Shown here: in pieces, positions 24,444-41,349 of the stretch
Layout: every line of letters starts with the position of its first letter
Numbering within the stretch: position 1 is the stretch's first letter
Sequence record: PZ386957.1
From: a phage
Strand: one strand, 5' to 3'
DNA length: 64,000 nt
Notes under the pieces: model-generated
What the model saw: the letters and a program-made list of their open reading frames with translations, nothing else
What the model was told of the DNA's origin: nothing
Databases searched by the model: none
Made by a program: the position numbers and the translations under genes

Positions 24444-26591
24444 TTATTCTCGTCCATTTGTATAGTAGTGTTTGAATCGCCCATAGCCAGTTTCAATAGA
24501 CATATCTTTCTGTCGGACAATCGCCCAATAGCCATTGCATGAATCTTGCAAATACAGATCCTTACCTTTTAGGAACTCGTTAAAGATCGTAATCTGCCAA
24601 TCATAATAGACGGCATCAGCGAGACTATCCATCCAACCATGTGGATCATCCATCAGTTCGACAAGCTCATCGATAACCCAATATGGACACGGGCTAAATT
24701 TACCTTTACTAAAATCATTGAACAAGGTAACAAGTTTAACTTCCGGTCGCGGTTCATCCGGCTGCACAGGTCGTTTATTAACCACAACCTGTACATATTT
24801 CGTATACCCGATGATTTCGCCGGAGTCAAGAGTATCGTTATTGTTCTTATCTGCATAAGCCACAAAACGATAAACACCGGAATCATTTATTGTTGCATTA
24901 GCTTTACGGTAAATCGGCACGCGAGAATCAGCAATAGGTAATTTAACACCAGCTTTGCTAAACTCATAGGTAGGTACATAATCAGCCGGAGGCTTCAACA
25001 TGGTAGCCTCAAGAACAAGCGGTTCACCTTCCGTAATCTGTACCGGATGCGGACCATCAAATTCCATATTAGGCACTACCTCAACATGGTAGGTAGCGCG
25101 TGCTGCAATATCGTAATCGGTATGCGCACTATATGGATCTTTACTCGGACTATCGCGGTATTCATGCGACCAGATACCGTTATGGTCTCGGTCTGCGGAA
25201 TCAGTGATCTTATACTCTTTCGCTTCAATAGGCAAATCTGCGACTTTAACATCATTTTTCAGAATTACTAATGAACGCGTTTGAGTCGGATCACCGCTTG
25301 CTGGCGGTTCTGGATCGACGATCTTAATTACAATCGGTTCACCAATCTCAATATTACGATAATCATATTCTTTATCGTAAATGTCAAGCATACGGCGGTC
25401 ATAGAACAAAGGACGTCCGGTCGGTGTTCTCTGCGGATCATCATCACGCGCGGGAGCCACCAACAGTTGAAGTGCTACGCTATCGTCATATTGCAATTCA
25501 TTAAGCGTAATGCGGTCATATCCCGGATCACCGTATTTCTTGCTTTGGAGTTGCTTACCGCCTAGCATCCACGTAAAGTAAACATTATTTGCAAGCATAC
25601 CATAATGGCGGTTCCATGAGTTATCCGCTGGTAATACTGGCATATCAAAGTTTACTTCCGATCCAGAAGGATAACGAAATTCGATTGCTGCAAAGTCATT
25701 ACGGAAAAATTCGTTTTCCTTAACTTTGACAGTAAATCGGTGTCGCTGCCCTTCAATGAATGATTCACCAGCACCAGGTCCATTAACCACTTTATAGGAG
25801 CGAACGCAAGCTACATATTCACCTGCATCATTTTCGGTAGCATGTTTGGTTGCATAGAGTGTTTTGTTGGTAGACTCATAAACAAGAGTACCGTCGCCAC
25901 GCTCTAAGCGATACCTTACAATGGTATGCTCTGCGTCATTAGGCGCATCATCTTCTACCGTGAAATAAGCTGGTGCATATTTCTGGACATTGAATACTGC
26001 GGGATTTTCCTTAATATCGGCAACAAACGGATAAACAAATTTAACGTCGCCGTGTTCGTCGCTCAATTCCATTCGGTAATTACCGGAAAATTCAGGCCAT
26101 GCAAATTTTGCAATTTTAAATTCACGATGGTCTAATCCCAGATCACCATCAATGGAATCAACGAGGCCATTATTATAATACAGGTCAACCGAAATATTAG
26201 CCGGAATATTACTACGGAAAACAATTTTTGCTTTAATTTCATCACCAATATCAAAAGACGTTGGAGGATGAACATATTCGACAAAGACATTATCGAATAA
26301 ACTAAAGGTAAAGTTTTCCGTGCCGATATCTACGGATTCGCCAGAAAAATTTTCATCATCTTGCGCATAACCACGAAGGTTAACAGACCATCCGGTTTTA
26401 TCCTCTTCTTTCACTGAATCCAATACATAGGAAGGAGTTGCAGTAGTCGCAATGACCTTATTGTCTTTCTTCCACGTAAAACCCTTTTTAGGTTTAGTTG
26501 GTTCAGGGGATTCCCCAGCAAGGGAACAAGCGAAAGTATGAGGAAGCCAAATGGTAGTATTAACGCTAGTATCTTTATTTTCTACTGGCAT
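24444..26591 (-). CDS. Large protein with Ig-like repeat signatures
   Basis: 715 aa; repeated D.G.Y.C motifs (DAGEYVACV, DSGVYRFVA) typical of Ig-like beta-sandwich domains. Confidence 0.6.
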   Translation of the reverse strand: MPVENKDTSVNTTIWLPHTFACSLAGESPEPTKPKKGFTWKKDNKVIATTATPSYVLDSVKEEDKTGWSVNLRGYAQDDENFSGESVDIGTENFTFSLFDNVFVEYVHPPTSFDIGDEIKAKIVFRSNIPANISVDLYYNNGLVDSIDGDLGLDHREFKIAKFAWPEFSGNYRMELSDEHGDVKFVYPFVADIKENPAVFNVQKYAPAYFTVEDDAPNDAEHTIVRYRLERGDGTLVYESTNKTLYATKHATENDAGEYVACVRSYKVVNGPGAGESFIEGQRHRFTVKVKENEFFRNDFAAIEFRYPSGSEVNFDMPVLPADNSWNRHYGMLANNVYFTWMLGGKQLQSKKYGDPGYDRITLNELQYDDSVALQLLVAPARDDDPQRTPTGRPLFYDRRMLDIYDKEYDYRNIEIGEPIVIKIVDPEPPASGDPTQTRSLVILKNDVKVADLPIEAKEYKITDSADRDHNGIWSHEYRDSPSKDPYSAHTDYDIAARATYHVEVVPNMEFDGPHPVQITEGEPLVLEATMLKPPADYVPTYEFSKAGVKLPIADSRVPIYRKANATINDSGVYRFVAYADKNNNDTLDSGEIIGYTKYVQVVVNKRPVQPDEPRPEVKLVTLFNDFSKGKFSPCPYWVIDELVELMDDPHGWMDSLADAVYYDWQITIFNEFLKGKDLYLQDSCNGYWAIVRQKDMSIETGYGRFKHYYTNGRE

Positions 26592-28253: not shown

Positions 28254-28500
28254 TTTCTATCACCTCAACCCAATCCGGTAGTTCTTGAAAGACTCCATCG
28301 CCTTCATGATGTTTACAGCCTTTATTGGTGCAATACATCCACCAATCCCACATTCCCCACGGTAAACGCTGCATATCGTCGTTGCAGCAAGTGAAGATAA
28401 TAGGCCAACCACATCTAACACATCGGCAGTTTTCCTTCATGTGAGCGCTATTAGGCTTCATATTCCACCACCACAATATTGATATCCGGCGTAAAATCAT
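28246..28500 (-). CDS. Cys-rich small protein (putative Zn-binding)
   Basis: 84 aa; CRCVRCGWP..FTCCNDD..YCTNKGCKHH. Confidence 0.45.
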   Translation of the reverse strand: MILRRISILWWWNMKPNSAHMKENCRCVRCGWPIIFTCCNDDMQRLPWGMWDWWMYCTNKGCKHHEGDGVFQELPDWVEVIENA

Positions 28501-28906
28501 TAATGATTTCTTCTACGCATTCCCATTCTAGGCCGCCAATCCCACAACCAATTTTAGGAATATAGAACGGCTTAACAGTACCTTCAAATGCGAAGTTAAG
28601 TTGTTCGAATCCACGGATGATAGCGGAATATTCAGCATTTGGTCCTGGACGGAATTGCGTATAAAGATTAATACCCATCCAGTTATAACCATTAACGGTA
28701 TGATGCCAAACATTAAACTCGCCTAGCTTACTAGCCGTTCCTCTCGGTGTCTTTTTGTCAGTAGCCAATGCTTGTGGGAACTCTTTTGCGATCTTTGCAG
28801 CAATACCAGCGCCCATAGTATGAAAACAATTACAACCATGAATCAAATGACCGTTTCCTTGTTTAAACAGGGCGATGAGATCGCCCTTTACAGTATCAAT
28901 AATCAT
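28451..28906 (-). CDS. Macro-domain protein (TARG1/OARD1-like ADP-ribose hydrolase fold)
   Basis: 151 aa; GDLIALFKQGNGHLIHGCNCFHTMGAGIAAKIAKEF fits the TARG1-type macro core (H-C-x-x-x-MGAGIA). Confidence 0.6.
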   Translation of the reverse strand: MIIDTVKGDLIALFKQGNGHLIHGCNCFHTMGAGIAAKIAKEFPQALATDKKTPRGTASKLGEFNVWHHTVNGYNWMGINLYTQFRPGPNAEYSAIIRGFEQLNFAFEGTVKPFYIPKIGCGIGGLEWECVEEIINDFTPDINIVVVEYEA

Positions 28907-29288: not shown

Positions 29289-29879
29289 TCAATAGCGTTT
29301 AGTTTTAAGGATGCCTTTACTCTTTAAATGGTTAGCCTTTTTTAGTACATCATCAGCATAACCCAATCCGGCTTTATAGTTCCATCCAGCATTGTAAGAA
29401 GCTAGCGCGAGTCGGATATTACCGTTTCGAACATCCAGCCAGTATGCTAACTCATCCATCGCGTAGAATGCAGAAACCTCGCGATTCATGATAAAGTTAA
29501 TTGTCTGGCGATCACTCATTTTAACACCGCGCTTTGCATTTTTCGCTTTCACCGTTTTAAGGTAATTTTGAAATAATCCATAAGCATGATGATTTTTCTT
29601 TGGTGCTAAGTTTGCACCCGCGCTTGATTCTTGCCATGCGATACCCGCCAGGATGTGACCTAAACCCTTTCCGTTATAGCGAATATTCGGATGGTCATTT
29701 TTCAACTTACCGCTTTTCTCGAATTGTTCGCCGTATTGATAGGCGAAATGTAAATTATCTAGTTGGTGTGCTGTAAAGTTGTCTATCGGCGCTTTTTTGA
29801 TCGGTGCGCTAGTCGATGCGTGTGCAGCACCAACGGCTAGTGACAGACTCAATACTATCGCTTTTAGAACTTTTAACAT
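29289..29879 (-). CDS. Secreted lytic transglycosylase (SLT domain) with signal peptide
   Basis: 196 aa; signal peptide LSLAVGAAHAS; SLT motifs WQESS, GLFQ, SYNAG. Confidence 0.7.
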   Translation of the reverse strand: MLKVLKAIVLSLSLAVGAAHASTSAPIKKAPIDNFTAHQLDNLHFAYQYGEQFEKSGKLKNDHPNIRYNGKGLGHILAGIAWQESSAGANLAPKKNHHAYGLFQNYLKTVKAKNAKRGVKMSDRQTINFIMNREVSAFYAMDELAYWLDVRNGNIRLALASYNAGWNYKAGLGYADDVLKKANHLKSKGILKTKRY

Positions 29880-31215: not shown

Positions 31216-31914
31216 CTAACCACGTGTATAGTGTTCCAGAACAACGGTCAGATGAATATCTTCTAATAAATCTTTCCAAAAGTCAACATATGGTTCTTCC
31301 GGCATACCGTTTTTCTTTGCCTCTTCACGCGCGAGTTTAACACGCTCGTAGAGATCTTTCAATTCTTCCCGCACATCATCAAAGGTTCTTTCGCCCATCT
31401 TACATGCTAAGATAGAATCACGTTGAGATAGCGGGAATTGTAGATCACCTGTCTGATAGATTTCAAGTAGCTGATAACCAACACGCAGAGCATGAGAAAG
31501 ATCTTTCCAGTTACTGAAATACTTTTCAGATTTGGCTACCTGTTTCTTGAGATAACCAGACAAACCCCACATCCCAACATGATAGAATTTATCGCGATGT
31601 GTTCGGATGTATTCCCATTCTCTGGAGGATTCAATCAACATGTTACTAGGCGCGTGCACCATGTCAATAGCGCCAATATCACCTTTACATGCCAGATTGA
31701 TAAACCGTTTTAGACTGAACATATTAACGTCAATATCGTCTTTGGTGTTCTTGATACCTTGACCGCTAGTGCTTTGGTCATAGTGTTCTTTCATCGATCC
31801 TAAGATAATTTCTTTAGCAGTCGGAACAAAGATACCACGATAATCTTTATCGGAATTTTCAGTATTAAGGCCGTATAAGTGAGATCCGAAGACCATTTTA
31901 ACCATTGTATGCAT
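31216..31914 (-). CDS. Pol-beta superfamily nucleotidyltransferase
   Basis: 232 aa; N-terminal GSHLYGLNTENSDKDYRGIFV (GS-x9-D-x-D nucleotidyltransferase signature). Confidence 0.6.
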   Translation of the reverse strand: MHTMVKMVFGSHLYGLNTENSDKDYRGIFVPTAKEIILGSMKEHYDQSTSGQGIKNTKDDIDVNMFSLKRFINLACKGDIGAIDMVHAPSNMLIESSREWEYIRTHRDKFYHVGMWGLSGYLKKQVAKSEKYFSNWKDLSHALRVGYQLLEIYQTGDLQFPLSQRDSILACKMGERTFDDVREELKDLYERVKLAREEAKKNGMPEEPYVDFWKDLLEDIHLTVVLEHYTRG

Positions 31915-31995: not shown

Positions 31996-32412
31996 TTACA
32001 TTGATTCCGTAAAGGTTCGAGTAATAATATCTAATTGTTGCTCACGAGTTAAGCTATTGAAGCGGCAAGCATAGCCCGAAATTCGTACAGTTAGCGACGG
32101 GTATTTTTCAGGATTTTCCAGCGCATCCAGAAGAAGATCGCGATTCATTACGTTGACATTGATATGTTGAGCACCGCGATTAGTTCCGATCTCACCGTCA
32201 ACCATCACCGAACGGAAGCTAGTTGTGTGCAGTGCCAGCGAATCTACGTCTTCGGCAGTGATCACATGGTCTTCTGCGAAAGTCTTACTAACAATTACTT
32301 TAGCACCGATCAGTGCTTTCGGTTCTGATACCAGAATCATAGGCGCGAAGTGTCCACCAATAACAGTACCTTTATGCTCACCTTTCATGATTTGAATTGC
32401 TTTAAATTCCAT
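31996..32412 (-). CDS. Autonomous glycyl radical cofactor (GrcA/YfiD-like)
   Basis: 138 aa; C-terminal GAQHINVNV..PEKYPSLTVRISGYACRFNSLTREQQLDIITRTFTESM closely parallels E. coli GrcA glycyl-radical motif. Confidence 0.8.
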   Translation of the reverse strand: MEFKAIQIMKGEHKGTVIGGHFAPMILVSEPKALIGAKVIVSKTFAEDHVITAEDVDSLALHTTSFRSVMVDGEIGTNRGAQHINVNVMNRDLLLDALENPEKYPSLTVRISGYACRFNSLTREQQLDIITRTFTESM

Positions 32413-37269: not shown

Positions 37270-37488
37270 TTATTTATATAGCTTTCTATCGCTACGTTTC
37301 CGGTCTTCTTCCTTGATACAATTAAATGCATCAAACAGACACATACCGCTGATAGTGAACATGATCAGGTTTTCGACGATATCCCACGTTTTAGCCCCTG
37401 TGCAGATATTCCAAACAGTCATAAAAGCAAATAGTGCAGAAGAGATCACAAGCATGATACTTGCTAAGATATAAAAAGTCATTTTCAT
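37270..37488 (-). CDS. Small membrane protein (2 TM)
   Basis: 72 aa hydrophobic. Confidence 0.5.
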   Translation of the reverse strand: MKMTFYILASIMLVISSALFAFMTVWNICTGAKTWDIVENLIMFTISGMCLFDAFNCIKEEDRKRSDRKLYK

Positions 37489-37679
37489 GGTTTTACCTCA
37501 ATTCTTCGATATTCATCACACATCCACGCAGTAAGCAAGAATCCCATCACATAAGCAACAAAATACGTTAATGCTTCTTCTGGTTCGGTGCTATGCGCCA
37601 TCATCAGACCAGCGAGAAAGGTCTTAACAATTACATTTAAAATAATTAGCCACGCAAATAATTTCATCGTTTGCCCCAT
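37485..37679 (-). CDS. Small membrane protein (2 TM)
   Basis: 64 aa hydrophobic. Confidence 0.5.
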   Translation of the reverse strand: MGQTMKLFAWLIILNVIVKTFLAGLMMAHSTEPEEALTYFVAYVMGFLLTAWMCDEYRRIEVKP

Positions 37680-37906
37680 TTCGGACGAGATTTTTCAAAT
37701 TTATACATTCCGTAACAATCTCGGATCATCCACGTAACAAGAGCACCAGTCAATACAGAAAGTACACAGAAAAAGTAAAACGGTCCAGTTGCATTGTCAA
37801 CATGAGCAAGCCAGGTAAAGAAAGCACATGCTAAGAACGTAAAGAACATCATAAAACACAGGAAAGCGAAATATTTTATGCTACTCATAGCGCCACCATA
37901 CAACAA
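37664..37906 (-). CDS. Small membrane protein (2 TM)
   Basis: 80 aa hydrophobic. Confidence 0.5.
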   Translation of the reverse strand: MLYGGAMSSIKYFAFLCFMMFFTFLACAFFTWLAHVDNATGPFYFFCVLSVLTGALVTWMIRDCYGMYKFEKSRPKWGKR

Positions 37907-37991
37907 ATCATAAGAAAGCCCAACGCAATAAGAATTGCATCAAATTTAGTGAACTCCGGTCCACCTATCAACATCATTCGTTCTATCTCGT

Positions 37992-38237
37992 TCATAGCGT
38001 ACATACCCATCTGAAAGCTCCACATAAAGCGATCAGTAGACTAGGTATAAACGAGACTAAAACAAGATAACAAAAATCATCTAAGGTAACACCGGAATAG
38101 CTACCAACTGTAATCACACCGATGATCAGACACAGAAAGAAAACAAATGCAATCAGAAACAAAGTATTGCTAAACAGTTTAGTGATCATTAGACACCCCA
38201 CGACGGTCAATTTCAAAAACTTTCTTATCACCAACAA
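37992..38237 (-). CDS. Small membrane protein
   Basis: 81 aa hydrophobic; start may be internal. Confidence 0.45.
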   Translation of the reverse strand: MLVIRKFLKLTVVGCLMITKLFSNTLFLIAFVFFLCLIIGVITVGSYSGVTLDDFCYLVLVSFIPSLLIALCGAFRWVCTL

Positions 38238-38388
38238 AGCAGGTCACTACCGCCTCGTTGACTTCCGCAAATTGTTGTGTTACCCACTTAAGGTCATTGC
38301 GCATCAATGTTTTATTAATAACAAATGTTGTGCCTTTCTTATCCTTACCCATAAATTTTGCTTTAACCACATCAAAATCATATTCCAT
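38179..38388 (-). CDS. Hypothetical protein
   Basis: 69-aa ORF. Confidence 0.45.
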   Translation of the reverse strand: MEYDFDVVKAKFMGKDKKGTTFVINKTLMRNDLKWVTQQFAEVNEAVVTCFVGDKKVFEIDRRGVSNDH

Positions 38389-38397
38389 ATTATCACC

Positions 38398-38568
38398 TTA
38401 TTTGCTAATCGCTAAACCCAATCCAAAGAGAGCACCCGATGCTACAGTATATCCGAAAGTTTCAAGGGCAGTAAAGATATCGAAGCCACCAGCTAACAGA
38501 GTTGCAGCAAACATAGAGCCACCTGCGAACATAAACACATTTCCAAAAGTTTTAGCAATAATTTTCAT
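38398..38568 (-). CDS. Small hydrophobic Gly-rich peptide (56 aa), unannotated in track
   Basis: Hand-translated MKIIAKTFGNVFMFAGGSMFAATLLAGGFDIFTALETFGYTVASGALFGLGLAISK; RBS AGGAGAA 6 nt upstream; promoter 38600-38628. Confidence 0.55.
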   Translation of the reverse strand: MKIIAKTFGNVFMFAGGSMFAATLLAGGFDIFTALETFGYTVASGALFGLGLAISK

Positions 38569-38599
38569 GTTGATTCTCCTCTCGTTTGTTTGTGGGGGT

Positions 38600-38628
38600 A
38601 TCTTACTACCCCCGTTTCATGTTGTCAA
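38600..38628 (-). promoter_or_regulatory. Promoter TTGACA-17-TAAGAT, -10 inside inverted repeat GGGGGTAG...TACCCCC
   Basis: Minus-strand read upstream of the 56-aa peptide gene. Confidence 0.6.
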
Positions 38629-38634
38629 TTGTTT

Positions 38635-39012
38635 TTAAGAAAATTTTACTTCGTCTACAATGTCTTTCATGACATTGATTTCCATTCCGGTCAGAACACG
38701 TTGGAACATGTGCTGCACATACGCTTTCAGGTATCCATTTGATGGCTTGCTATCAAAAGTCTTTTTAGTGTAGTAGTCATCACCGAAAGCTACTGTAATT
38801 ACATTTTCGTCGTCGTTCCAAGCGATATAAGCAAATTTGCCGTTATCCCAGAAGCGAGCACTAATTGCTACTTTTGTTGAATCGAATCCTACTTCGCTGT
38901 GAGATTCAAGAACTACTTGCGTGCCAGTTTCTTTATGAATGTAGTAGCGGGATACTAAGTCAAAGTTACGGGTGTAGTGACATTCGAAGTTATCTTTAAA
39001 CATCATCATCAT
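38635..39012 (-). CDS. Hypothetical protein
   Basis: 125-aa ORF starting MMMMFKD after promoter/leader 39051-39079. Confidence 0.55.
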   Translation of the reverse strand: MMMMFKDNFECHYTRNFDLVSRYYIHKETGTQVVLESHSEVGFDSTKVAISARFWDNGKFAYIAWNDDENVITVAFGDDYYTKKTFDSKPSNGYLKAYVQHMFQRVLTGMEINVMKDIVDEVKFS

Positions 39013-39050
39013 TTTTGATTCTCCTAAGTGTGTTTCGTTTCGATGTGTGC

Positions 39051-39079
39051 ATTATGCTATAGTCGTTTATGGTTGTCAA
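39051..39079 (-). promoter_or_regulatory. Promoter TTGACA-17-CATAAT with GCACACATCGAAACGAAACACAC leader
   Basis: Minus-strand read; downstream of terminator 39085-39115. Confidence 0.65.
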
Positions 39080-39084
39080 CACCT

Positions 39085-39115
39085 AAAAACAAAAAACCCC
39101 GAAAAAATTCGGGGT
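39085..39115 (-). terminator. Intrinsic terminator after 57B
   Basis: ACCCCGAA-TTTTTT-CGGGGT then TTTTTTGTTTTT. Confidence 0.7.
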
Positions 39116-39121
39116 ATAGAA

Positions 39122-39592
39122 TTACAGTTTGGTCGTCCACTCCAGATCTAGATCTTCGACATACTCATGAGATCGGACAATCTCTAAATCGAACTCTAGG
39201 TCAGTGCCAAATTTACGCGCACCAACATCATAAGAAAGCGTGATATGCGGTACATATTCAGGATAATCCCACGTCGCACCTAAAGCAGTTCCGATATCGT
39301 GTCTGAATTGCATGTAGTCGCTTTCAAATGCCAGCACAAGTGCATTAGTACCGGATTGAGTTTCAAACACTTTCAGATGGCATAGAGAGCCTAAGAACTT
39401 CTCCCCTTCTTCTGGGATAAACGGAACATAAACACGAGAATATAAGATAGTGCTATGCAGTTTATCACGAGGAACGGCATTAGGAAGATCGTAGAACTCT
39501 TGCAATTTTTCAATGCGGTCTAGTGTATCCTCAGTGAATTTAACCGCCGCATATGTACCTTTAACGGATTCTTTGAACGGGGTCATAATCAA
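39122..39592 (-). CDS. 57B: 2H phosphoesterase (gene 57B position; Acb1-like)
   Basis: 156 aa; two H-x-T/S-x motifs (LHSTIL, PHITLS) diagnostic of the 2H superfamily; located upstream of 57A/1 as in T4. Confidence 0.7.
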   Translation of the reverse strand: MIMTPFKESVKGTYAAVKFTEDTLDRIEKLQEFYDLPNAVPRDKLHSTILYSRVYVPFIPEEGEKFLGSLCHLKVFETQSGTNALVLAFESDYMQFRHDIGTALGATWDYPEYVPHITLSYDVGARKFGTDLEFDLEIVRSHEYVEDLDLEWTTKL

Positions 39593-39855
39593 GCCTCCGT
39601 GATCAGTTCTACTTCCTCTTTAGCGTCTTCCGCTGCTTCGTCTTTAGAGAGAAGTGCTTTTACTTCTTCAACAATTGCATCAAGGGAAACAGTGCCATTT
39701 TCATCTGGCTGAATACCCAGAATACGCACCAATTCCATCAAGACGCGCTCACGATCTTTCAGTTGGCCTTCTAAGAATGCGGCTTTTTCTTGAGTGTCAA
39801 ACAGACGTACTTTCAGGACATTAATCATTTGTTCATGCTGATTGGACATATTCAC
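39589..39855 (-). CDS. 57A: Tail-fiber assembly chaperone gp57A
   Basis: 88-aa coiled-coil acidic protein; KVRLFDTQEKAAFLEGQL resembles T4 gp57A; conserved position. Confidence 0.7.
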   Translation of the reverse strand: MNMSNQHEQMINVLKVRLFDTQEKAAFLEGQLKDRERVLMELVRILGIQPDENGTVSLDAIVEEVKALLSKDEAAEDAKEEVELITEA

Positions 39856-39881
39856 ATCTCCTACTTGTTGATAACTTTTTA

Positions 39882-40538
39882 TTAAATGTTCGCGAGAATC
39901 GCGCTTTCAAATTCTTCTAATGTACCATTATTTATGATAATGGTTTCACCGTCAATAGGCAAAATTCCTTTTTCGGTGGAGTGAGTCGATACAATACCAG
40001 TATCACGCTGAATATGCAACACCTTAGCACCCATAGCACGCATGAGAGCAATTTCAATAGGCTGACGAACATCAACCACTACAAAATACCCTTCTTCATT
40101 TTTGCGCTTCATAAACTCATTCACGAAGAGATTACACCAGTAAAGCGGATTAATCAAGTTAACCATTATATCAGTACCGAGAGTGGTTAACATGAGACGA
40201 ATAGACCAGACGTTATTATGTTTTTCGCCGATCTCATTAACGACCTTGTAAATCTCAACCAGACGGTCACACGTAAAGGAACTACCGCCACACTTCGAAT
40301 CTAGCATAAGAAGACACTGGATAAACCATTTATGCGCTGTGTAGGTATCAATACCTAGATCGGCTTCTCTGTCACGCCCTAGCCCATCAAAATCAAGATA
40401 CGTTAGACCTAAATCCGGTTGACATTCACATAAGACTTCTTTGATCGGTGCTGCTAGTTGATAACTATGACCATCAATGATTAACGCGGCAGTATCTTTC
40501 CCCACTCGTTTTTTACCACAAAGTGCAATCAATTTCAT
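39882..40538 (-). CDS. 1: Deoxynucleoside monophosphate kinase gp1
   Basis: 218 aa; MKLIALCGKKRVGKDT P-loop; LAAPIK, RLMLTTLGTD, LYWCNLF, MRAMGAKVLH match T4 gp1. Confidence 0.9.
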   Translation of the reverse strand: MKLIALCGKKRVGKDTAALIIDGHSYQLAAPIKEVLCECQPDLGLTYLDFDGLGRDREADLGIDTYTAHKWFIQCLLMLDSKCGGSSFTCDRLVEIYKVVNEIGEKHNNVWSIRLMLTTLGTDIMVNLINPLYWCNLFVNEFMKRKNEEGYFVVVDVRQPIEIALMRAMGAKVLHIQRDTGIVSTHSTEKGILPIDGETIIINNGTLEEFESAILANI

Positions 40539-40553
40539 AATATAATCCTCGTA

Positions 40554-41144
40554 TTACTTTCTAAAAGCTGGATGCATTGCTTTGATACCCTCAACCCTCT
40601 GGCGGTCAGCCGCCTGAATTGCCGGACGAGGAACGATCAATTGTCCATCCCGTTCAATGCTCATTGTTTTAAATGGAAGAATTGCAGTACATACCAGAGA
40701 TTCATGCATATCATCGGTGTATGTTAACTCAAGTTCTCCTAATTGGGAACACCAACAACCATAAAAGTTAAATGTGCATACAATGTTACGGCGTTCATTG
40801 TCCATCATGTGAACTTGAACGGCTTCCGGCATTGAATCCTTCCACGCAGTGGAGTTCCCGTTATTGTAGTCTACTATAGAAAGCATCCAGGTGTAAAGGT
40901 TTAGATAGCTTTCTAGATGTTCATCGACAATAAACCGGACTACCAACGGATCAAACTCTACATGACTAGAAGGATAGTCTGCCATAGCCAAACCATATTG
41001 ACCAGCAACTTGTTTAGTCGGTGGAATTGTTATAGCAGGAAGTGTAACACCTTGACAGTTTAAAGTAAAGCCTTTTGTTAGTTGACCATCTGGAATGGTT
41101 ATTTGCCAGTTACTAGGATTAGCATAGTTAAAGAGATTAGACAT
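40554..41144 (-). CDS. 3: Tail completion/sheath stabiliser gp3 (by position)
   Basis: 196 aa; occupies the T4 gene 3 slot between 1 and 2; no motif check possible. Confidence 0.55.
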   Translation of the reverse strand: MSNLFNYANPSNWQITIPDGQLTKGFTLNCQGVTLPAITIPPTKQVAGQYGLAMADYPSSHVEFDPLVVRFIVDEHLESYLNLYTWMLSIVDYNNGNSTAWKDSMPEAVQVHMMDNERRNIVCTFNFYGCWCSQLGELELTYTDDMHESLVCTAILPFKTMSIERDGQLIVPRPAIQAADRQRVEGIKAMHPAFRK

Positions 41145-41349
41145 GTTAATACCTTCTTAAATGAAAATATTTATCAAATAGTATCGCTTCGCGAGTGCCG
41201 GAGGCACTATTTTTGTTATTATTTTTGATGATTAATTATTAATCAAACGTGTATCTTTCAGGATAATAAAGATCACCGTTTTGGTGCTTTTTTAATCACT
41301 ACCTGTAAATTTATACAGTAATAAATAAAAGGGATAAACCGTTAGAGTA

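Follow-up and report, generated by a model that had tools for sequence, protein, structure and literature searches.

A close described relative of the protein considered here is the product of gene 57B of phage T4 (gp57B, NP_049750.1), which is Acb1, an enzyme that cleaves cyclic nucleotides 3′ of adenosine in two metal-independent steps via a cyclic phosphate [Hobbs et al. 2022, PMC9117128]. The first-pass annotation of the present locus had described T4 57B as Acb1, in agreement with that study. T4 Acb1 and all nine of the further homologues that were cloned cut both 3′3′-cGAMP and cAAA, and T4 from which acb1 has been deleted (Δacb1) suffers a more than 300-fold loss on CBASS hosts (PMC9117128). 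In addition, a CBASS host depletes transposon insertions in T4 57B/acb1 (bioRxiv 10.1101/2025.11.20.689424). The active site of T4 Acb1 is an HxT/HxT tetrad, i.e., H44, T46, H113 and T115, over which the scissile phosphate is placed; the bases are stacked by four aromatic residues, namely Y12, W74, F107 and W147; and the C-terminal residues 145-152 form a lid over the ligand (PMC9117128). N6 of adenine is contacted by E141 (PMC9117128), and it is because of this contact that Acb1 needs at least one adenosine in its substrate. The residue numbers given by Hobbs et al. are in T4 numbering, as was confirmed by counting.

Structures are available for Acb1 of the Erwinia phage FBB1, both in the apo form (7T26) and with the 3′3′-cGAMP product (7T27). 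A more distant relative is 2H PDE-9 of the Burkholderia phage BCSR5 (9Q2Y/9Q2G; Doherty et al. 2025 preprint), which is likewise a lidded viral 2H phosphodiesterase, but has its lid at the N-terminus rather than at the C-terminus and has another substrate preference (bioRxiv 10.1101/2025.08.21.671373). More distant again are E. coli LigT and other enzymes of the 2′-5′ RNA ligase type (5LDI; PF13563 and PF02834), which share the superfamily fold and the two HxT/S motifs, but are without the C-terminal lid and the stacking residues of Acb1.

The DNA analysed here, referred to below as the window, is a stretch of 64 kb from a Krischvirus (RB49-like) coliphage. In the ORF listing of the window, an uninterrupted minus-strand ORF spans 39122..39592, and its translation contains both LHSTIL and PHITLS, the two motifs by which the first-pass annotation had recognised a 2H phosphoesterase. 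The position of the start codon given there, 39592, has to be revised. A ribosome-binding site, GGAGG, can be read directly at 39594..39598 on the minus strand, within the last codons of the preceding gene, 57A. The TTG at 39592 begins only 1 nt past this site and overlaps the stop codon of 57A, and was rejected for these two reasons and because of the annotation in relatives; the ATG at 39586 begins 7 nt past the same site and is the annotated start of a 465-nt CDS in relatives. Thus, ribosome-binding site spacing and the annotation in relatives make the ATG the likely start, giving an acb1 (57B) CDS at 39122..39586 on the minus strand, which encodes 154 amino acids followed by a TAA stop codon; the product is an Acb1-family 2H phosphoesterase with a single domain. 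The T4 protein has 152 amino acids. Residue numbers of the window protein are counted from the ATG at 39586.

In T4, 57B is the last gene of the string 3-1-57A-57B, which is encoded on one strand, and the same order is found on the minus strand of the window, according to Pfam, PHROG and comparison with the T4 region. The first gene of the string, gene 3 (40554..41144), which encodes the tail completion protein/sheath stabiliser, was identified from Pfam Phage_T4_gp19 (1.9e-07), PHROG 45 and the annotation of relatives; it is followed by gene 1 (39882..40538), encoding the dNMP kinase (Pfam DNMK, 8.9e-68), and by 57A (39589..39855), encoding the tail-fibre chaperone (Pfam GP57, 2.2e-06; PHROG 1002, 2.5e-25; annotation of G5211 and MIZ2), which relatives start at the ATG at 39849. 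57A lies directly 5′ of acb1. Since the ribosome-binding site of acb1 is within the 3′ end of 57A, and 2 nt separate the stop codon of 57A from the acb1 ATG, acb1 is probably translationally coupled to 57A. The locus had been described beforehand as a conserved slot upstream of 57A and gene 1: the slot is indeed conserved, but acb1 is transcriptionally 3′ of both genes, because all three genes are read from the minus strand and acb1 is the lower only in plus-strand coordinates. A terminator scan revealed an intrinsic terminator at 39086..39115 on the minus strand, with an 8-bp G+C-rich stem and a 4-nt loop, in which the stem (39115..39096) begins 7 nt past the acb1 stop codon and is followed by a T-run; a terminator is annotated at the same site in G5211. 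This terminator appears to close the 3-1-57A-57B transcription unit, with acb1 as the predicted last cistron.

The T4 late promoter (TATAAATA) does not occur in exact form near acb1. Copies with one mismatch occur on the minus strand at 39929..39936 (CATAAATA), about 75 nt upstream of 57A, where the site overlaps a sigma-70-like match at 39955..39927, and at 41168..41175 (GATAAATA), about 25 nt upstream of gene 3. These one-mismatch late promoters may drive expression of 57A and acb1. As a basis for the timing of acb1 expression, a T4-type late promoter was considered and rejected as too weak, given that only one-mismatch copies are present. T4 acb1 is reported to be expressed at middle/late times; the timing in the window phage is inferred.

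The window protein belongs to the Acb1 family. It matches the Pfam model PF23474 (Acb1) over profile positions 1-143 of 144, with 174.3 bits compared with a cut-off of 27 (E 1.5e-51), and the sole sequence match in the PDB (phmmer) is FBB1 Acb1 (7T26/7T27; E 1.9e-43); judged by these two E values, the motif and family match is far beyond chance. The first-pass annotation had proposed alignment to T4 Acb1 as a check: in BLASTP, the two proteins are 47% identical from end to end (E 1e-47), with both HxT motifs aligned. All 64 homologues recovered from a large protein collection carry PF23474. An NCBIfam scan of the window protein gave no match, either to an Acb1 model or to a LigT-type model. 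The protein also matches PHROG 755 (6e-55), which is labelled “RNA ligase.” This label is an old name for the T4 57B family, arrived at by homology transfer, and is judged to be outdated because T4 57B, the founding member of the PHROG, has been shown to be Acb1 (PMC9117128).

An AlphaFold2 model of the window protein, built on an alignment of 63 homologues, has a mean pLDDT of 90.2 and a pTM of 0.83. In a Foldseek search of the PDB, the first match was 7T26 (E 7e-17, TM 0.97, rmsd 0.9 Å over 138 columns, 52% identity) and the second was 7T27. FBB1 Acb1 is thus the closest solved structure, with 76 of 142 aligned residues identical (about 53%), although it comes from a phage of another host genus. 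The next-best structure is BCSR5 2H PDE-9, at E ~1e-07, TM ~0.7 and 16-18% identity, and the window protein groups with T4 Acb1 rather than with this enzyme. At the C-terminus, the model has a short helix (148-153), with pLDDT falling below 50 over the final four residues, a low confidence that would perhaps fit a flexible lid.

The residues to which Hobbs et al. (2022) assigned a role in catalysis or ligand contact are all kept or conservatively replaced in the window protein. The first catalytic motif, H44-S45-T46 within LHSTIL, is encoded at 39449..39457, and the second, H114-I115-T116 within PHITLS, at 39239..39247 (both minus strand, codons checked); they are equivalent to H44/T46 and H113/T115 of T4, so that the HxT/HxT tetrad is identical, and the two His are separated by 70 residues, compared with 69 in T4 Acb1 (H44/H113). 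Neither catalytic His, the loss of which would have spoken against the assignment, is missing, and both are invariant in the 63 family members aligned, together with T46, S50, T116, L117 and Y119. At least 90% conserved in the same alignment are G10, T11, Y12, R95, Y111, P113, S118, D120, E141, Y142, E144 and L146. All four stacking positions are aromatic in the window protein: Y12 is retained, W74 and F107 of T4 correspond to F74 and Y108, and W147 of T4 corresponds to the lid residue W150. Thus, there are only two replacements, F74 and Y108, which are still aromatic and are identical to the residues of FBB1 Acb1 at those positions. The adenine-reading Glu, E141 in T4, is E144 in the window protein; it is part of the C-terminal segment E141-Y-V-E144-D-L-D-L-E-W150 (39137..39166, minus strand), which was aligned to T4 and FBB1. 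The lid sequence, L-D-L-E-W150-T-T-K-L, is likewise present and aligns with the lids of both, even though its last four residues are those modelled with pLDDT below 50. In structure, the window protein differs from T4 only by one extra residue after G79 and by two extra residues in the loop at 130-131, a pair that FBB1 Acb1 also lacks. Full-length PF23474, 47% identity to T4, a TM of 0.97 to 7T26, the tetrad and contacts, and synteny together support the original proposal that the protein in the 57B position is a 2H phosphoesterase of the Acb1 type.

From these observations, and by analogy with the enzymes of T4 and FBB1, the gene is held, with a probability of about 0.9, to encode an active orthologue of T4 Acb1 (gp57B), which would linearise the adenosine-containing cyclic di- and trinucleotide signals of CBASS. 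The enzyme would be a metal-independent 2H phosphodiesterase of 154 amino acids. In an infected E. coli cell carrying CBASS, the CD-NTase would produce cyclic di- or trinucleotides, e.g. 3′3′-cGAMP, cUA, cAAA or cAAG. The ring of such a signal would be clamped by the aromatic residues Y12, F74 and Y108 and by W150 of the lid, and N6 of the adenine would be read by E144. Within the tetrad formed by H44, T46, H114 and T116, the 2′-OH of the adenosine would then attack the 3′-5′ bond, and a 2′,3′-cyclic phosphate intermediate would be converted to a linear product. Because this linear product would be unable to activate the CBASS effector, abortive infection would not be triggered. Catalytic activity, substrate range and benefit against CBASS are all presumed here to follow those of the T4 and FBB1 enzymes. 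No published enzymatic or genetic assay of the window protein, or of a purified Krischvirus orthologue, was found; the phage table of the lysate screen by Hobbs et al. does include an RB49-type phage, G2494 (PMC9117128), the result for which is given in a figure only. MM02 gp156, which has been named Acb1 (PMC12657230), was considered as a tested Krischvirus protein and rejected: the MM02-like phages are Bas46/47 and evidently belong to Mosigvirus, because Bas47 is the closest listed relative of a phage assigned to that genus.

An enzyme of the Acb1 family need not have CBASS signals as its main substrate. Among viral 2H phosphodiesterases, enzymes whose active sites are intact may still act on sharply different substrates, and substrate range tracks variation in the core of the protein (bioRxiv 10.1101/2025.08.21.671373). 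T4 Acb1 also degrades 2′3′-c-di-AMP (PMC12657230), and the structural group to which it belongs acts on messengers from CD-NTases, housekeeping pathways and type III CRISPR (PMC12657230; bioRxiv 10.1101/2025.08.21.671373). The main substrate in Krischvirus could therefore have shifted, e.g. to cA3 of type III CRISPR, to 2′3′-c-di-AMP or to another nucleotide, leaving the enzyme with minor value against CBASS, and the 2-residue loop insertion and the 47% identity to T4 would fit such a shift. Against this, every residue named as a contact of 3′3′-cGAMP is kept; the window protein resembles FBB1 Acb1, the enzyme crystallised together with 3′3′-cGAMP, more closely than T4 Acb1 does, and F74 and Y108 are those of FBB1; and none of the nine additional homologues studied by Hobbs et al. 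failed to cut cGAMP and cAAA (PMC9117128). A shift of this kind is thus quite unlikely.

Very unlikely is a generic LigT-like 2H enzyme, i.e., a 2′-5′ RNA ligase or 2′,3′-cyclic phosphodiesterase, serving in RNA repair or end healing in the phage. Such an identity is suggested by the “RNA ligase” label, which is carried not only by PHROG 755 but also by many GenBank and RefSeq records, by weak Pfam matches to 2_5_RNA_ligase2 (PF13563; E 0.0012) and LigT_PEase (PF02834; E 0.058), and by the presence of LigT structures among the Foldseek matches. However, the label is the old transferred name of a family whose T4 member has been shown to be Acb1 (PMC9117128); the two generic models reach 19.4 bits and 14 bits, falling short of gathering thresholds set at 27 and 23.3, respectively, whereas the Acb1 model reaches 174 bits; and the LigT-type structures match with TM 0.45-0.63, rmsd 5-8 Å and 11-17% identity (typically TM ~0.5 at 11-13% identity, compared with TM 0.97 at 52% for Acb1). 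Moreover, the window protein has kept the Acb1-specific ligand contacts and the Trp of the C-terminal lid. An identity as “RNA ligase” or LigT was rejected on the sub-threshold Pfam matches and the poor structural similarity; in the model, the likeness of the window protein to LigT-type enzymes appears to be at the superfamily level only, and the reading as an active Acb1 orthologue is retained.

The locus is widespread among close relatives. The region 38600..41200 has about 95% DNA identity to about 70 Krischvirus members of the Straboviridae, including RB49, Phi1, JSE, KFS-EC and G5211, and acb1 is present in 59 of the 59 matching Krischvirus records, with 95.6-98.3% nucleotide identity. 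These records label it “hypothetical protein,” “gp57B” or “RNA ligase”; none of those listed calls it Acb1. The identical protein sequence is found on 43 public contigs. Comparison with two other Krischviruses gave 11.5-13.5 synonymous and 1.5 non-synonymous differences, i.e., a dN/dS of about 0.03, and the lone amino acid difference was K5 versus R5. Thus, acb1 is under purifying selection within the genus. Two records have frameshifted copies: in Cognac (MZ504877.1), one nucleotide of a T-run is missing, and the gene is annotated as ORFs of 64 and 82 amino acids, and in TB34 (OX001802.1) there are two 1-nt insertions, while the near-identical sister phage SAP has an intact gene. Either sequencing errors or natural loss could account for these frameshifts. 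That the window gene is an inactive relic, retained merely through its position in the 57A transcription unit, has next to no probability, for although acb1 is dispensable to T4 without CBASS (PMC9117128) and the acb1 homologue of phage Bas43 has a nonsense mutation (PMC12657230), as Cognac and TB34 have frameshifts, the window ORF is intact, with all of its catalytic residues, a dN/dS of about 0.03 and the same protein sequence on 43 contigs.

Immediately beyond the terminator, the window departs from T4. Where T4 has ipI 3′ of 57B, there is here an unrelated protein of 125 amino acids (38635..39012, minus strand; PHROG 15253), preceded by a strong sigma-70-like promoter of its own at 39079..39051 on the minus strand (11 of 12 positions) and with a terminator-like hairpin at about 38592..38615. 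Its match to Pfam Gp30.7 of T4 is sub-threshold (E 0.004), and no relatives were found in the PDB or NCBIfam; by its position, it is a candidate anti-defence gene. Further along, about 730 bp beyond acb1, a protein of 69 amino acids (38179..38388, minus strand) is a homologue of Dmd (Pfam Dmd, 1.4e-15; PHROG 2102, 3e-29). In T4, Dmd (discriminator of mRNA degradation) is an antitoxin against the host toxins RnlA and LsoA, and acb1 thus lies near another likely counter-defence gene. In contrast, dmd is not adjacent to 57B in T4, being absent from the T4 regions compared. Flanking Dmd in the window, at 37270..38568 on the minus strand, are five small ORFs of 56-81 amino acids, each in a PHROG of its own without assigned function; by translation, most of them are hydrophobic and resemble membrane proteins. 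T4 also has tRNAs and the small RNAs rnaC and rnaD just past ipI, whereas an Rfam scan of the whole 64-kb window gave no family at gathering score, and the window therefore has neither a cluster of tRNAs nor any small RNA of a known kind.

A “multi-pronged counter-defence repertoire” had been proposed in the first-pass annotation, with Acb1, a macro-domain protein and a nucleotidyltransferase as its members; this is only partly borne out. The latter two proteins exist, but a counter-defence role for either found no support here, and the nearby Dmd homologue bears more directly on such a repertoire. The T4 orthologue of the macro-domain protein (28451..28906, minus strand; 151 amino acids; Pfam Macro, 3.4e-06) is Tk.4 (43% identity, E 1.7e-39). 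In NCBIfam, the DarG antitoxin model is matched in its macro half, but far below threshold (52 bits, compared with a cut-off of 250 bits), and the window protein appears to be an ADP-ribosylglycohydrolase domain without the DarT-binding half. The nucleotidyltransferase (31216..31914, minus strand; 232 amino acids) is an RlaP-type protein, matching Pfam PF10127 (RNA repair pathway DNA polymerase beta family) at 3.2e-14. Within the 64-kb window, tblastn found no homologue of Acb2 (T4 vs.4) and none of ipI, and acb1 is the only recognisable anti-CBASS gene there. Two other minus-strand genes are accessory genes of an ordinary T4 type: one, in the position of T4 vs.1, encodes a protein with an SLT lytic-transglycosylase domain (29289..29879), and the other, placed much as vs.6 is in T4, encodes a glycyl-radical (GrcA-like) protein (31996..32412). 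More variable is an ORF of 715 amino acids (24444..26591, minus strand), which is missing from most Krischviruses and is full-length in only about six phage records (JK32 and SFHK24 at 80-83% amino acid identity), while RB49 and most others retain only about 36 codons of its N-terminal end (query residues 6-41). The N-terminus gives a weak Ig_2 match, and residues 503-688 are weakly similar to a “whisker protein” of a Klebsiella phage; possibly, the product of this variable accessory gene is a surface fibre.

The gene described here is of a kind already known, in a lineage already sequenced, with family, fold, mechanism and role all worked out in 2022. The public labels for the Krischvirus gene, “hypothetical protein” and “RNA ligase,” are outdated in all of the listed records, so that the practical value of the assignment is a correction of annotation. 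Almost certainly, this RB49-type coliphage carries the standard CBASS-signal-destroying enzyme of the T4 family, which is useful to know for the prediction of host range and for the choice of therapeutic phages.

Another defence, Panoptes, fires when a decoy cyclic nucleotide is degraded, and Acb1 has been reported to make T4 visible to it (PMC12657230). In this connection, it could be proposed that the substrate range of Krischvirus Acb1 is measurably unlike that of T4, in view of the loop insertion, the pocket with F74 and Y108 and the 47% identity, and that the frameshifts in Cognac and TB34 are real, selected losses; this is an unlikely though conceivable combination. If it were true, a range that spares or prefers 2′3′-c-di-AMP could alter whether Krischviruses trip this decoy-signal defence, and acb1 would be a liability, hence its selected loss in Cognac and TB34. 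For the family as it is known, carriage of Acb1 cuts both ways: it counters CBASS, yet Acb1 activity is itself reported to be a trigger of Panoptes (PMC12657230).
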